Source: Escherichia phage EP_H11. From it: a DNA stretch of 64,000 bases. The stretch lies in the sequence record OP688485; one strand, given 5' to 3'. Shown in pieces: positions 27,383 through 64,000 of this stretch (the first letter of the stretch is position 1; every line of letters begins with the position of its first letter). The notes beneath the pieces are model-generated. The model did no database searches, was not told where the DNA came from, and saw only the letters and a list, made by a program, of their open reading frames with translations. The position numbers and the translations under genes are program-made.

Positions 27383-27624
27383 TGGACTTAATGAAATTAA
27401 ACATCAAACTAGAGGGTGTATGTAAGGCAGGAATAGTGAAGGTATGCTATAACTGTAAAGAGTACCCCATTCTACGTCTTGACGAGAATAATCACTTACA
27501 TCTGGAATGCCCTAACTGTAAATGGGATGACCATGAAGTGGTTACTGATTTGGATATGGAAGATGAAGCAGTATCTGACCATGAGCTAGGTCTTATGGTT
27601 GGCTTGTGGAATAGTCATAACTAA
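27382..27624 (+). CDS. hypothetical zinc-ribbon protein
   Basis: CYNCKEY...CPNCKW; last plus-strand gene before bidirectional terminator. Confidence 0.4.
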   Translation: MDLMKLNIKLEGVCKAGIVKVCYNCKEYPILRLDENNHLHLECPNCKWDDHEVVTDLDMEDEAVSDHELGLMVGLWNSHN

Positions 27625-27637
27625 ATTAATCTACACA

Positions 27638-27680
27638 AAAATGGGACTCATTCGTGATAGGGATGAGTCCCATTTATTTA
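27638..27680. terminator. bidirectional intrinsic terminator between convergent early and late blocks
   Basis: ~14-bp stem AAATGGGACTCATT / GATGAGTCCCATTT flanked by A-run on one side and T-run on the other. Confidence 0.8.
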
Positions 27681-28010
27681 GCGCTTAAAGATGCCCATAA
27701 TAGCATCGTTAAACAATCCTAACAGTACTGTAATAATCGCTAACGCACCGCTCCAGAATTTAATCTTGTCGTTTACTTCCTTAATCTCCTTCCTTAGATT
27801 ATCCTGCTCATCTTCAAGGCCAGAAATCTTCTTAGACATGAAATTCTGTGCAACGACTAGCTCGCGGATATCCGCTAATATCTCCGTCTGCTTACGAGAA
27901 GACTCCATAAGTTGATCAAGGATTACTCCCTGAAACTTCTGGTTAGATTCAAGTCTCGCTAGCCTATCGAGTTGGCGCCCACCGAACTCAGACTCTTCCC
28001 TCTCGCGCAT
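27678..28010 (-). CDS. coiled-coil protein with C-terminal transmembrane anchor (lysis-associated)
   Basis: 110 aa; GAGGAA RBS; C-terminal WSGALAIITVLLGLF hydrophobic helix. Confidence 0.45.
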   Translation of the reverse strand: MREREESEFGGRQLDRLARLESNQKFQGVILDQLMESSRKQTEILADIRELVVAQNFMSKKISGLEDEQDNLRKEIKEVNDKIKFWSGALAIITVLLGLFNDAIMGIFKR

Positions 28011-28020
28011 ACAAGATTCC

Positions 28021-61183: not shown

Positions 61184-61195
61184 AGCGGTTCCTTA

Positions 61196-61462
61196 TTACG
61201 ACTTAGTGTAGCCGAAGCCGTACTTTTCCATGATATAAGTCAGACCATCGCCAAGGCGAGTAGTTACTATGAGATCGCCATTGTCATCGATAGATGCAGT
61301 AGCGCCAGCATCGTGGATCTGAACGTCACGGAGGAAGTTATCCAGCACACCATTTACGGTATCGCTGTTATCTTTTGCAAGGCGAGTCAGCGTATACGTA
61401 GTAGCAGCAGACTCATCAACAGCTTGCATAAGCAGCTCAGATTTATTCATTCTCTTCACCAT
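61196..61462 (-). CDS. hypothetical small head-module protein
   Basis: 88 aa ORF between portal and scaffold. Confidence 0.4.
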   Translation of the reverse strand: MVKRMNKSELLMQAVDESAATTYTLTRLAKDNSDTVNGVLDNFLRDVQIHDAGATASIDDNGDLIVTTRLGDGLTYIMEKYGFGYTKS

Positions 61463-63020
61463 CTTCTGGGGGAGCAGGAGGAGTCTGCTGGGTTACTGGT
61501 ACCTCGGACTTAAGCTTAATTACTCCGTGAAACGGAGAGCCTATGTCTGCGAGAGTATCCGCGACCACCTTAAGCAGAGCATCGTTATCAATAGTATAAT
61601 TGGAGTTCTCGATCTCGTTCTTCAGAGAATCCAGCATCCCAGTCATACCATTAATACTTGTGATAAGAAGATCTTGAGTCTCCATATTCTCAAGAGCATC
61701 TACGTTAATCGAGGACTTCAGTGTTACCTTAATTTCAGATAACTCTAGATCCAGATTCTCGTATTTAAAGCCGAAGTGTAATAGCAGCAGATATTGCAGC
61801 CATTTGCACAGACTCTTACCGATGCGCTTGATCTTCTTAGCGTAACGAATATTCGTCCTTAGGTTATCCTTAGAGGAAAGGCTTCCAAGGAATAACTCCA
61901 AAGGAATACCATAGGACTGTAACAGAACCTCTAACTCGGATCTGATCTTCTCCGGATCGATAGTGTTATCCGACTTACCAGTATCCAGGATCTGAGGTAC
62001 AGACCTATCTCCAGAAATAGGAACGACTTTAACTGATACGATATCCTGCAGATTAAACTGGAGGTTACTCATATCAGCAGCAAACAGGTTAGTACTGTTA
62101 ATGATTTGGTCATAGTCGTTGACTATAGACTTCATCTGCTTAATGTCGTTATTGTTCGGAAGAGGGACACCGATTACAGACGGACTCAGGAGGTTAGCCA
62201 GCGTCTTATAGACGTTAACCTTATCCAGCATCAAGATATTCTTGAGCTTATCCAGAGATCCCCATAAGAATGATAAGGACGAACGAATTTTAATCGACTT
62301 ACCCATGAGCTTAGCCATAGGTTCATCTTCACCCAGCTCTTCCGTGATTTTACGCTTCATCTGGGCAGTGACTTTATCAGGAATCGGCAGCTTAATGAAG
62401 TTCTGATCCAGAGAGAGGTAAGATACCTCTTGAGGACCTAGATACTCCATTTTCTGACGAGACTCATAGTCTATATACCCAGCATCCTTCGTCGTATAGT
62501 TCACGAAGAAGAAAATAGGAAGGCCGGATGAATCAGTTACTGCGATAACATCACGAGGATCAAAATCATCCACCAACCCAATCAATCCCTCGCCATCTTC
62601 CAGTGATGGTCTTAAGGGGTATGATCCATAGTGCAGTAACTCCGGCAAAATGGAAGTGAGGAAGTCTGGGATAGCTAGAGCTTTAATTAGCTCATTTGCC
62701 TCCCGAGTCAGTTCTTCATCACCTTCAATTTCTATGACGAACCCACCATCATCCGTATTGGTGAGCACGTCATTACAGATGATATCGTAGATACCAGCTG
62801 TGATATAGTTGTAGCGAAATCTCGCCAGCTCGTTGAAATACTTTTCACGAGTGGTTACCATATTGGTAAGGCGGTCGGTAAGGTAAGCCTGTACCGTGCC
62901 TAACAATCCATCGCTATGCTTCATAGCGATGGTATCGTCTAGCAACTTTGCTAAGACCTCCTGGCGAGAACCAGGTTTGTCATCTAAGTCTTGCTTAGAG
63001 ACCACTTCGTTTTCTGCCAT
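61443..63020 (-). CDS. portal protein
   Basis: 525 aa immediately downstream of terminase large subunit; size and position. Confidence 0.55.
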   Translation of the reverse strand: MAENEVVSKQDLDDKPGSRQEVLAKLLDDTIAMKHSDGLLGTVQAYLTDRLTNMVTTREKYFNELARFRYNYITAGIYDIICNDVLTNTDDGGFVIEIEGDEELTREANELIKALAIPDFLTSILPELLHYGSYPLRPSLEDGEGLIGLVDDFDPRDVIAVTDSSGLPIFFFVNYTTKDAGYIDYESRQKMEYLGPQEVSYLSLDQNFIKLPIPDKVTAQMKRKITEELGEDEPMAKLMGKSIKIRSSLSFLWGSLDKLKNILMLDKVNVYKTLANLLSPSVIGVPLPNNNDIKQMKSIVNDYDQIINSTNLFAADMSNLQFNLQDIVSVKVVPISGDRSVPQILDTGKSDNTIDPEKIRSELEVLLQSYGIPLELFLGSLSSKDNLRTNIRYAKKIKRIGKSLCKWLQYLLLLHFGFKYENLDLELSEIKVTLKSSINVDALENMETQDLLITSINGMTGMLDSLKNEIENSNYTIDNDALLKVVADTLADIGSPFHGVIKLKSEVPVTQQTPPAPPEDGEENE

Positions 63021-64000
63021 TTAGCCACCCACTCGTTGCTTAATAATGTTCCGAAACATCTCCTTCGCATCCCTAGACTTATTAAGTTCGTGGAGTGCAA
63101 CTTGAAGATCTTCAACCGTAGCAGTAGACCCTATCTTATGGATATTCTCTTTAACTGCCCACTGAGATCCGCAGACAGCATCCGCGATATCTTTACTCCC
63201 CGACGGAGGGTGGTCGAACTTACCTTCTCCTTCCTCCAACTCTTTAAGCTCCTTGATCAGTTTAGGTACAGCAGGAATAGTGCTGCGGCCTTCGAGAATC
63301 GAGTTTCTTAAGTAGTTATACGGGTCTTTAGTCCGGTCTACAGATAGCAGAGCAGTCTCGAACCCAGCCAGAGTTAAATCCTGACGTAAGTTCGTGGATT
63401 GGTATCCATCTGTGGTTACCATTTTAATTGGGTAACCTTGCTGAGATGCTTCTATTAAGAAGTTCTTAATCTTGTAGATGGGGACTTCCTGACCAGGCTG
63501 GCAGGTAATTTCTAATGCCCACTCAGTAACGATTTTAGGTTCACGGGTAACCATGCGCGTACTGGTTAGAGGATCGTAAGTCTCTTGGTCAACATAACCA
63601 TCGAGATAGGAACAGGCTATACCAGTTGAGTCGTTCTTAAGACCCAAGTCAATATGGATGAACCGATCCTTCTTATTAAGGAAGGCAAGTCTAGGAACAT
63701 CTATAGTCTGGTGAAGAGTCTGCTCCTTATCGAAGAAGTCCAGAACCACCACGTTAGATTCAGTAGGGTTAATGTGATCAGCAGCTCGGTTAAGCACCTC
63801 GTAGGACGAGATGAACGACCATGTACCGAATGTGGACACACCTGCAAGATCCCTAAGAGACTTAACAATGTTAGTCTCGAATTCCTGTCTATGTTCAACA
63901 GGTACAGAGATAATACGAGATGGCTCCAGACCGTCTTTAATCTTGAGAGTATTCTCATCGAAGATAAACGGATCTCGATACTGGTCACCAGCATAGACGT
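63021..64000 (-). CDS. terminase large subunit, C-terminal nuclease part (truncated at window edge)
   Basis: reading frame stays open from the track GTG start at 63839 to position 64000; RNase H-like nuclease motifs HIDLGLKNDSTGIA, TTDGYQS, DIADAV. Confidence 0.7.
   Translation of the reverse strand, partial: VYAGDQYRDPFIFDENTLKIKDGLEPSRIISVPVEHRQEFETNIVKSLRDLAGVSTFGTWSFISSYEVLNRAADHINPTESNVVVLDFFDKEQTLHQTIDVPRLAFLNKKDRFIHIDLGLKNDSTGIACSYLDGYVDQETYDPLTSTRMVTREPKIVTEWALEITCQPGQEVPIYKIKNFLIEASQQGYPIKMVTTDGYQSTNLRQDLTLAGFETALLSVDRTKDPYNYLRNSILEGRSTIPAVPKLIKELKELEEGEGKFDHPPSGSKDIADAVCGSQWAVKENIHKIGSTATVEDLQVALHELNKSRDAKEMFRNIIKQRVGG

Follow-up and report, generated by a model that had tools for sequence, protein, structure and literature searches.

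Other virulent phages are known in which opposed early and late blocks of genes end at a common intergenic hairpin, without any sequence relationship to the DNA described here. In YerA41, the only predicted rho-independent terminator lies where the last gene of the forward block faces that of the reverse block (PMC9023294), and the phage carries RNA polymerase beta/beta-prime-like genes and follows a temporal early, middle and late programme (PMC7354516). Escherichia phage vB_EcoM_IME392 has been grouped with YerA41-type phages by similarity of its DNA polymerase, which in this group is a UDG-fused family A enzyme (PMC12686479). The group comprises YerA41 (genus Sepahanvirus), Carin-5, RP13, phiLo, RHph_TM30 and LIS04, and in several of these phages thymidine hypermodification has been either demonstrated or inferred. 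They differ from the phage studied here in terminase sequence (31-34% identity) and in genome size (145-207 kb).

We analyzed a 64,000-nucleotide stretch of Escherichia phage EP_H11 (OP688485), hereafter the window. Judged from its sequence, it spans slightly over half the circular map of a virulent myovirus infecting E. coli, close kin of IME392 (MH719082.1, 116,460 bp). Megablast and targeted alignments gave 93-97% nucleotide identity to IME392 across most of the window, with a colinear gene order except at the receptor-binding/fibre cassette. The GenBank record of IME392 is sparsely annotated (85 features) and was opened within a gene; the window reads contiguously across the two record ends, inside an open reading frame (ORF), showing that the map is circular. 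In a prophage check, none of 5,426 complete E. coli genomes matched, and Rfam and tRNA scans of the window found nothing.

The final plus-strand ORF of the window stops at 27624 and the final minus-strand ORF at 27678. Up to 27624, ORFs of at least 60 aa cover 93.1% of the plus strand versus 33.6% of the minus strand; from 27678 to 64000, they cover 97.1% of the minus strand versus 36.6% of the plus strand. The ORFs on the wrong strand are short and nested within longer ones on the right strand, and the cumulative GC skew reaches its maximum at 26-28 kb, where the coding strand switches. The first-pass annotation had stated that all plus-strand genes end by 27624 and all minus-strand genes by 27678, and ORF coverage and the skew switch both agree with it. 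A co-oriented early/middle arm and an opposed late arm that meet at a hairpin are thus present in the window, and the annotation of IME392 and of Acinetobacter phage Ab1-TPeters contains the same layout.

We conclude with good confidence that the genome consists of two transcription arms facing each other across 53 bp that hold one strong hairpin. The long plus arm (~73 kb in IME392) would originate at a divergent junction just past the right edge of the window, wrap round, enter the window at position 1 and end at 27624, carrying early and middle genes. The short minus arm (~43 kb in IME392, ~37.7 kb here) would start at the same junction and run through a 157-aa ORF, the large terminase, and the head, neck, tail, baseplate, receptor-binding and lysis genes to 27678. 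We infer the early, middle and late timing of these genes from their content and from the published YerA41 RNA-seq. The features around the convergence point are as follows.

27382..27624, plus strand: last plus-arm gene (ORF list), encoding an 80-aa protein with two CxxC pairs, zinc-ribbon-like.
27639..27675: hairpin at the convergence point, resembling a bidirectional intrinsic terminator (folding, conservation in IME392).
27678..28010, minus strand: last minus-arm gene, in the lysis cluster; translated as a 110-aa coiled-coil protein that has a hydrophobic segment at its C-terminal end.
28021..28309, minus strand: two small overlapping ORFs; in translation, the 69-aa product shows a lipoprotein-type signal (LVSC) and the 76-aa product a hydrophobic segment at its N-terminus.
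28306..28728, minus strand: 140-aa membrane protein with a hydrophobic segment, holin-like by position (phrog_9685, function unknown, E 1e-15).
28743..29390, minus strand: endolysin, 215 aa (phrog_181 endolysin, E 1.8e-59).

The 53-bp spacer contains AAAAATGGGACTCATTC-GTGATAG-GGATGAGTCCCATTTATTT, with an A-run and a T-run flanking the hairpin. The stem has 15 pairs, a 12-pair core plus three A-U pairs, of which six are G-C, and closes on a loop of 7. A U-rich tract lies 3' of the stem on either transcript, UUUAUUU on the plus and UUUUUGUGU on the minus. RNA folding gave -24.4 kcal/mol (z -6.4) for the plus strand and -21.6 kcal/mol (z -4.0) for the minus strand, and none of 200 shuffles folded as well in either case. 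In length, the hairpin ranks second among short-range inverted repeats of the 64 kb, and it is placed just past both convergent stop codons. IME392 has the same convergence point and hairpin, and its spacer differs at 3 of the 53 bp, all in the loop or at the top of the stem, where a compensatory double change from T:A to C:G keeps the stem paired. The bidirectional terminator proposed earlier between the arms is supported by this stable, correctly placed stem with U-tracts on both transcripts. A consensus terminator scan of the window did not list the hairpin, in our reading probably because the A- and T-runs can pair with each other and so consume the T-tract.

Most likely, the hairpin would stop transcription from both sides, so that, as we propose, neither arm would be read antisense into the other. 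It may act on the host enzyme or on the phage's own multisubunit RNA polymerase, whose response to intrinsic terminators could differ if it reads the late arm.

The genes on either side of the spacer appear to be read in the frames given above. Compared with IME392, substitutions in both terminal genes are most often synonymous in the claimed frame (13 synonymous and 8 non-synonymous in the 80-aa gene, 10 and 7 in the 110-aa gene). Pfam gave only sub-threshold coiled-coil matches for the 110-aa protein. The 69-aa and 76-aa ORFs may form a spanin-like pair, and the IME392 orthologue of the 215-aa endolysin is annotated as a lysis protein.

Beyond these genes, the minus arm has the make-up of a typical myovirus late block, and PHROG and Pfam matches put its modules in canonical order.

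29601..32645, minus strand: 1014-aa virion-type protein (Pfam DUF4815, E 6.9e-130; phrog_877, E 3e-166).
32656..33477, minus strand: 273-aa baseplate-wedge tail-fibre-network component (Pfam BW3TFN, E 9.4e-28; phrog_1394 virion structural protein).
33494..43354, minus strand: receptor-binding cassette with genes of 472, 824 (tail spike), 560, 780 (fibre/spike) and 504 aa.
43332..47881, minus strand: baseplate genes, comprising wedge subunits, a hub/spike N-terminal domain and three more proteins (phrog_219, phrog_261, phrog_43, phrog_430).
47881..50718, minus strand: 945-aa tape-measure-sized protein, its C-terminal part a lysozyme/chitinase-like domain (phrog_181, residues 713-917, E 2.5e-39).
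50797..52712, minus strand: three tail genes (276, 158 and 195 aa), of which the 195-aa one is tail-tube-like.
52660..54459, minus strand: tail sheath, 599 aa (phrog_23 tail sheath, E 1.8e-62).
54470..58114, minus strand: seven small genes separating capsid from sheath, assigned to head completion/neck from their position.
58211..58239, minus strand: terminator-like hairpin just past the end of the capsid gene, with 12 pairs (7 G-C) followed by UUUUUCUUGUUUU (terminator scan).
58264..59691, minus strand: major capsid protein, 475 aa (IME392 orthologue, putative major capsid protein; phrog_1014, E 3e-13).
59747..61183, minus strand: head maturation protease/scaffold fusion, 478 aa (phrog_207 head maturation protease, E 1.5e-15).
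61443..63020, minus strand: 525-aa portal-sized protein directly downstream of the terminase, portal by position only.
63021..64000, minus strand: large terminase, C-terminal 326 codons (nuclease half) by translation, open to the window edge.

The receptor-binding cassette matches phrog_19988 tail spike (E 1.6e-139) and several tail-fibre families. It has been replaced relative to IME392, and the late arm is ~5 kb shorter here: window positions ~33.1-42.7 kb have no megablast-level similarity to IME392, and 39506-41187 shares 86.6% identity with N4-like Gamaleyavirus podophages (megablast). The IME392 orthologue of the tape-measure-sized protein is annotated as a glycoside hydrolase, and the three tail genes have weak matches (phrog_150 baseplate hub, E 6e-5; phrog_4542 tail tube, E 2.5e-5). 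Neither Pfam nor PHROG returned a match for the portal-sized protein, and IMG/VR held no relative of it; its position directly after the terminase is the same in IME392 and Ab1-TPeters. For the seven small genes that separate capsid from sheath, neither PHROG nor Pfam was informative. In YerA41 the corresponding interval holds a particle-associated "sigma factor" gene; here we rejected a sigma factor or RNA polymerase domain, as none of the seven genes had a Pfam match.

The late block had been described as an operon running without interruption from the terminase, which stands for gene orientation and probably not for transcription, given the hairpin at 58239-58211. This structure folds at -27 kcal/mol (z -5.7) and is identical in IME392, and a positional analogue exists in Ab1-TPeters (z -5.1). 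With at least this one conserved structure of terminator type inside it, the co-oriented late arm probably comprises several transcription units rather than one transcript. The arm contains four gaps of 115-240 bp. No shared late-promoter motif was found among seven late-arm intergenic stretches compared with the IME392 divergent junction. A loose ..CAGGACG.. likeness in two or three stretches was dropped, CAGGMCGMC giving 2 matches versus 1.0 expected by chance.

The two-arm layout recurs in Ab1-TPeters (PP763253.1, 109,750 bp, a circular record), which has nearly the same late gene order. The terminase and a small upstream ORF head its late arm beside a divergent junction, and at its convergence point a 42-bp gap contains a 23-bp hairpin (-39.7 kcal/mol, z -8.7). 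This phage differs in its host, in its terminase (63% identity), in the sequences of its hairpins, which are unrelated to those of the window, and in having the lysis gene on the other arm.

These comparisons bear on whether the hairpin might do something other than end transcription. It could protect or process 3' ends, as a barrier to 3' exonucleases or as an RNase III site, stabilizing the last messages of both arms while transcription ends elsewhere or by collision. The similar-looking hairpin after the capsid gene fits such a role, as does its analogue in Ab1-TPeters, which lies only ~25 nt before the next start codon; this leaves no room for a new promoter and suggests read-through with mRNA stabilization or attenuation. 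However, a pure stability element would not need the U-tracts that follow the stem on both strands, and the 53-bp spacer has no sequence left for another stop signal. We therefore regard this explanation as improbable.

We consider it very unlikely that the convergence point acts mainly at the DNA level, as the terminus of a bidirectional replication begun near the divergent junction and co-directional with transcription, with the palindrome being incidental, a cruciform or a protein-binding site. The cumulative GC-skew maximum falls exactly at the switch and the junctions split the circular map into two arms, as such a terminus would predict, but coding-strand bias alone accounts for the skew. 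Moreover, the IME392 arms are unequal (~73 versus ~43 kb), a misfit for a terminus opposite the origin, and the present data locate no origin. That the palindrome is a functionless chance feature has a negligible probability: while the exact hairpin is present in only two closely related sequences, no shuffle folds as well on either strand, the stem is maintained by a double change in IME392, and unrelated, equally placed hairpins occur in Ab1-TPeters and, as reported (PMC9023294), in YerA41. A bidirectional terminator is thus the reading that we retain.

At the right edge, the terminase frame is free of stops between 63021 and 63998, and the other two minus-strand frames are full of stops. 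The fragment aligns at 99% identity with residues 284-608 of the IME392 terminase (608 aa), whose Walker A sequence (GIGLGKST) lies at about residues 87-94 and therefore outside the window. The frame is thus open at the edge with its ATPase part beyond it, as first described. A tblastn search with the fragment returned 341 phage records, many of which carry a large-terminase annotation; identity was 31-63% for the closer records. Pfam gave no match for the fragment; the full-length IME392 orthologue matched PHROG weakly (phrog_2, E 2.7e-4) and had no match in a PDB sequence search. The large terminase probably heads the late block, as first described: it is the first late gene seen in the window; its position adjoining the divergent junction is seen only in IME392 and Ab1-TPeters.

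The content of the missing part was read from IME392, a 93-97% identical relative. Outside the window, IME392 has the 157-aa ORF upstream of the terminase, the divergent junction, two tRNAs, genes for helicases, topoisomerase II and DNA polymerase, and an RNA polymerase beta-prime split over two genes, as Pfam confirms. A candidate small terminase and the DNA polymerase, helicase and RNA polymerase genes had been predicted to lie beyond the window, and in IME392 they are located there. Only ~1.3 kb of the late arm is missing past position 64000. Circularity of the map puts the genes for replication and RNA polymerase on the plus arm, upstream of where the window begins; in IME392 the split beta-prime genes begin ~0.8 kb upstream of window position 1. 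Among the scanned proteins of the window, there was no RNA polymerase or sigma match, and no plus-arm ORF exceeds 322 aa except the ligase.

Within the window, the plus arm encodes DNA ligase, Pol X, dUTPase, dCTP deaminase, an exonuclease and a glycosyltransferase block, and is therefore not purely early here. The dUTPase, dCTP deaminase and glycosyltransferases would fit a 5-hmdU/sugar pathway. Many plus-arm genes are preceded by a promoter-like bipartite motif of ~35 nt that includes AAAGGCTGTTAAAnTGT; it occurs only on the coding strand of this arm, and its 12-nt core has seven exact copies in the window. IME392 has the same motif; all copies listed there share the corresponding strand, and while the first sits in the divergent junction, six fall within the first 3.4 kb. 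The plus arm also includes a non-coding stretch.

18833-19361: non-coding stretch of 529 nt.

A search with the small protein encoded beside it found one metagenome contig, which shares the gene only, without the stretch or the motif.

Altogether, the two-arm layout is real but ordinary, having already been seen in relatives, and with a near-twin genome, IME392, already in GenBank it matters little in itself; flanking sequence extends it just as the first-pass annotation had anticipated. Its practical use is that the orientation and presumed timing classes of the window genes are fixed. The comparison also places the phage in a poorly studied group that shares a YerA41-type DNA polymerase and carries its own RNA polymerase genes, and several members of which have hypermodified thymidine. 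We tentatively raise the possibility that the late arm and both hairpins are read and obeyed by the phage's split multisubunit RNA polymerase, not by the host enzyme, in a phage whose thymidine is probably sugar-hypermodified. Phage multisubunit RNA polymerases are now studied mostly in jumbo phages. If this possibility is true, an easily grown, mid-sized coliphage of ~116 kb would be a compact model for these enzymes, with a defined ~35-nt promoter-like motif and defined stop signals.

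Plus-strand ORFs of Escherichia phage EP_H11 (OP688485) run unbroken up to 27624, and minus-strand ORFs run unbroken from the right edge of the window to 27678. Counting ORFs of at least 60 aa, coverage of 1-27624 is 93.1% on the plus strand against 33.6% on the minus strand, and that of 27678-64000 is 97.1% on the minus strand against 36.6% on the plus strand; opposite-strand ORFs in either arm are short and nested within longer ones. Cumulative GC skew climbs to a maximum at 26-28 kb and declines beyond. In the two terminal genes, comparison with the near-identical Escherichia phage vB_EcoM_IME392 (hereafter IME392) shows synonymous substitutions (13:8 and 10:7) to predominate when the claimed frames are used. 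Runs of roughly fifty and about forty consecutive genes, each on its own strand, leave no room for chance. Altogether, this confirms the convergent layout described in the first-pass annotation.

That annotation also placed a bidirectional terminator between the arms, and the 53-bp spacer (AAAAATGGGACTCATTC GTGATAG GGATGAGTCCCATTTATTT) supports this prediction. In plus-strand RNA, a predicted hairpin with a 15-pair stem (-24.4 kcal/mol, z -6.4) is followed by UUUAUUU; in minus-strand RNA, the hairpin (-21.6 kcal/mol, z -4.0) is followed by UUUUUGUGU, so that both transcripts carry a U-rich tract. None of 200 shuffles folded equally well on either strand, and the hairpin ranks second-longest among the short-range inverted repeats of the window. 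A simple terminator scan of the window did not list it, probably because its A and T runs can pair together. The stem is kept in IME392, whose three differences all fall in the loop or at the stem top, where a T:A pair becomes C:G; as the only compensatory change, this lends the stem modest support.

PHROG and Pfam searches identify the minus arm as a canonical myovirus late block, given here from the right edge inwards.

63021 to window edge, minus: large terminase, the first late gene in the window
next, minus: 525-aa portal-sized protein without family match, portal by position only
next, minus: 88-aa protein
next, minus: protease/scaffold fusion, then major capsid protein
next, minus: seven small neck-region genes
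next, minus: sheath, tube-like protein and two other tail proteins
next, minus: 945-aa tape-measure-sized protein with a lysozyme domain
next, minus: baseplate module
next, minus: fibre and spike gene cassette
next, minus: BW3TFN protein and 1014-aa DUF4815 protein
arm's end, minus: endolysin, holin-like membrane protein, two overlapping spanin-like small ORFs and 110-aa coiled-coil protein

An apparent gap at 28010-28306 is occupied by the small lysis ORFs. At the other end, the terminase frame is open from 63021 to 63998, with both remaining minus frames closed. The 325-residue fragment is 99% identical to residues 284-608 of a 608-aa IME392 protein annotated as large terminase; by tblastn it matched 341 phage records, with the closer matches (31-63% identity) often annotated likewise. 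A Pfam search with the fragment and a PDB sequence search with the full-length IME392 orthologue returned no match, and the orthologue matches phrog_2 only weakly (E 2.7e-4). In the orthologue, the Walker A site (GIGLGKST) occupies about residues 87-94, which precede the fragment, and so falls outside the window, where the ATPase domain had been placed.

The late operon had been described as uninterrupted, which holds for gene orientation but probably not for a single transcript. Directly 3' of the capsid gene (58239-58211), a hairpin of 12 pairs, seven of them G-C (-27 kcal/mol, z -5.7), is followed by UUUUUCUUGUUUU. Its sequence is identical in IME392, and an unrelated hairpin (z -5.1) occupies the same position in the more distant Acinetobacter phage Ab1-TPeters. 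Given this hairpin and the 115-240 bp gaps upstream of four other genes, one late operon is probably too simple a description, and internal transcription stops are probable. No shared late-promoter motif was found in the late arm. Just downstream of the hairpin lies the window's longest local inverted repeat (58153-58208; 27-nt arms, 78% complementary, core ACTTTGAC..GTCAAAGT), which overlaps a sigma-70-like TTGACA-18-TAAATT match and might serve as an operator or form another hairpin.

The receptor-binding cassette (window ~33100-42700) has no megablast similarity to IME392. Within its 780-aa fibre/spike gene, 1.68 kb (39506-41187) match N4-like podophages (Gamaleyavirus NAN33P5, Klebsiella phage K57alpha1.2 and Escherichia phage CU10EC) at 86.6% identity. 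Host-range genes have thus been swapped horizontally, with a myovirus and podoviruses as partners.

Inside the window, the plus arm is early plus middle in content, not purely early.

54-560, plus: 168-aa Acb1-like 2H phosphodiesterase (Pfam Acb1, anti-CBASS; 27.5 against a curated threshold of 27 bits)
9609-13002, plus: five-gene block of DUF7217, two MptE-like, GT1-like and another glycosyltransferase
24040-25404, plus: dUTPase and dCTP deaminase
906, 6067, 13024, 18219, 19616, 22331 and 23406, plus: seven exact copies of the 12-nt core of a bipartite motif
elsewhere in the plus arm: Pol X-like protein, NAD-dependent DNA ligase, PinA-like domain, transglycosylase domain and exonuclease

The 168-aa protein, a possible anti-defence gene, has a further match in a PHROG family called RNA ligase. 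Together with the five-gene block and a thymidylate-synthase-like gene of IME392, the dUTPase and dCTP deaminase form a probable thymidine sugar-modification block; the set is consistent with 5-hmdU-based sugar hypermodification of thymidine as reported in YerA41 (a Yersinia phage), Carin-5 and SP-15.

The bipartite motif (about 35 nt; CCGCTCTTT-N11-12-AAAGGCTGTTAA(A)nTGT) is found 20-60 nt before plus-arm start codons, is unlike a sigma-70 -35/-10 pair and is likely a phage-specific promoter. Its core has 16 matches in the window at up to two mismatches, against 5.4 expected, and every copy listed for IME392 (loci L001-L004) follows the coding strand of that arm, beginning with one in the divergent junction. 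The copy at 906 is also the stem of a terminator-like hairpin, pairing with 937-946. The largest non-coding gap of the plus arm (18833-19361, 529 bp) lacks plus-strand ORFs of 60 aa or more and shares 97.9% identity with IME392, above its flanking genes. The 11 differences are confined to four spots, among them the 5-nt loop of a hairpin and two positions that face each other in a stem, and folding beats shuffles on both strands (z -3.6 and -4.0). Rfam and tRNA searches gave no match, the window contains it only once, and the single metagenome relative recovered lacks a counterpart. A structured non-coding RNA and an origin-type element are both candidate identities for this stretch.

Among 50,697 phage records, IME392 (MH719082.1, 116,460 bp) is the sole close relative, with 96.6% nucleotide identity over 58000-64000 and 93.9% over 1-15118. 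The window spans both ends of its record without break, inside ORF 15061-15348, so the record is an arbitrary opening of a circular map. Its content outside the window, in window orientation, is as follows.

past 64000: remaining terminase, then a 157-aa ORF, then a short divergent junction
plus arm: tRNA-Met and tRNA-Arg
plus arm: helicases, SbcCD-like nuclease and topoisomerase II
plus arm: thymidylate-synthase-like gene
plus arm: primase/helicase region and DNA polymerase I-type gene
record 16457-18025 and 19904-21418 (locus L002): RNA polymerase beta-prime N-terminal half (Rpb1 domains 1-2) and C-terminal half (domains 3-5), by Pfam

The DNA polymerase, helicase/primase and any RNA polymerase placed beyond the window thus have IME392 counterparts there; for the small terminase, the 157-aa ORF, which has no family match, is a candidate by position only. 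After the divergent junction, the plus arm opens with six motif copies in 3.4 kb. As window position 1 corresponds to about record 15,701, the beta-prime genes start roughly 0.8 kb upstream of the left edge. GenBank labels the two genes 'beta' and 'beta-prime', and Pfam finds halves of one beta-prime; 'beta' is thus apparently a mislabel, and the neighbouring IME392 proteins examined yielded no beta subunit. The late arm and its hairpins might conceivably be read by a split multisubunit RNA polymerase of the phage itself, though this is rather unlikely.

Ab1-TPeters (109,750 bp), whose terminase is 63% identical, shares the two-arm plan, with the late arm headed by the terminase and a small ORF at a divergent junction, and a 23-pair hairpin (-39.7 kcal/mol, z -8.7) where the arms meet (73070/73113). 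The YerA41 genome also comprises forward and reverse gene blocks, and the one rho-independent terminator predicted in it separates the final genes of the two blocks (PMC9023294). RNA-seq places its RNA polymerase genes in the early class, replication and nucleotide genes in the middle class and those for terminase, capsid and tail in the late class (PMC7354516). DNA polymerase similarity groups IME392 with YerA41, Carin-5, RP13, phiLo and RHph_TM30 (PMC12686479), and our terminase search recovers the same set. The convergent layout has precedent: a near-identical deposited genome carries it and it has been described for a relative. The earlier interpretation is supported, refined by the circular map, the probable internal stops and the early-plus-middle plus arm. 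Judging from structure and conservation, the two temporal arms are most likely transcribed convergently, and transcription of both would end at a shared bidirectional intrinsic terminator.
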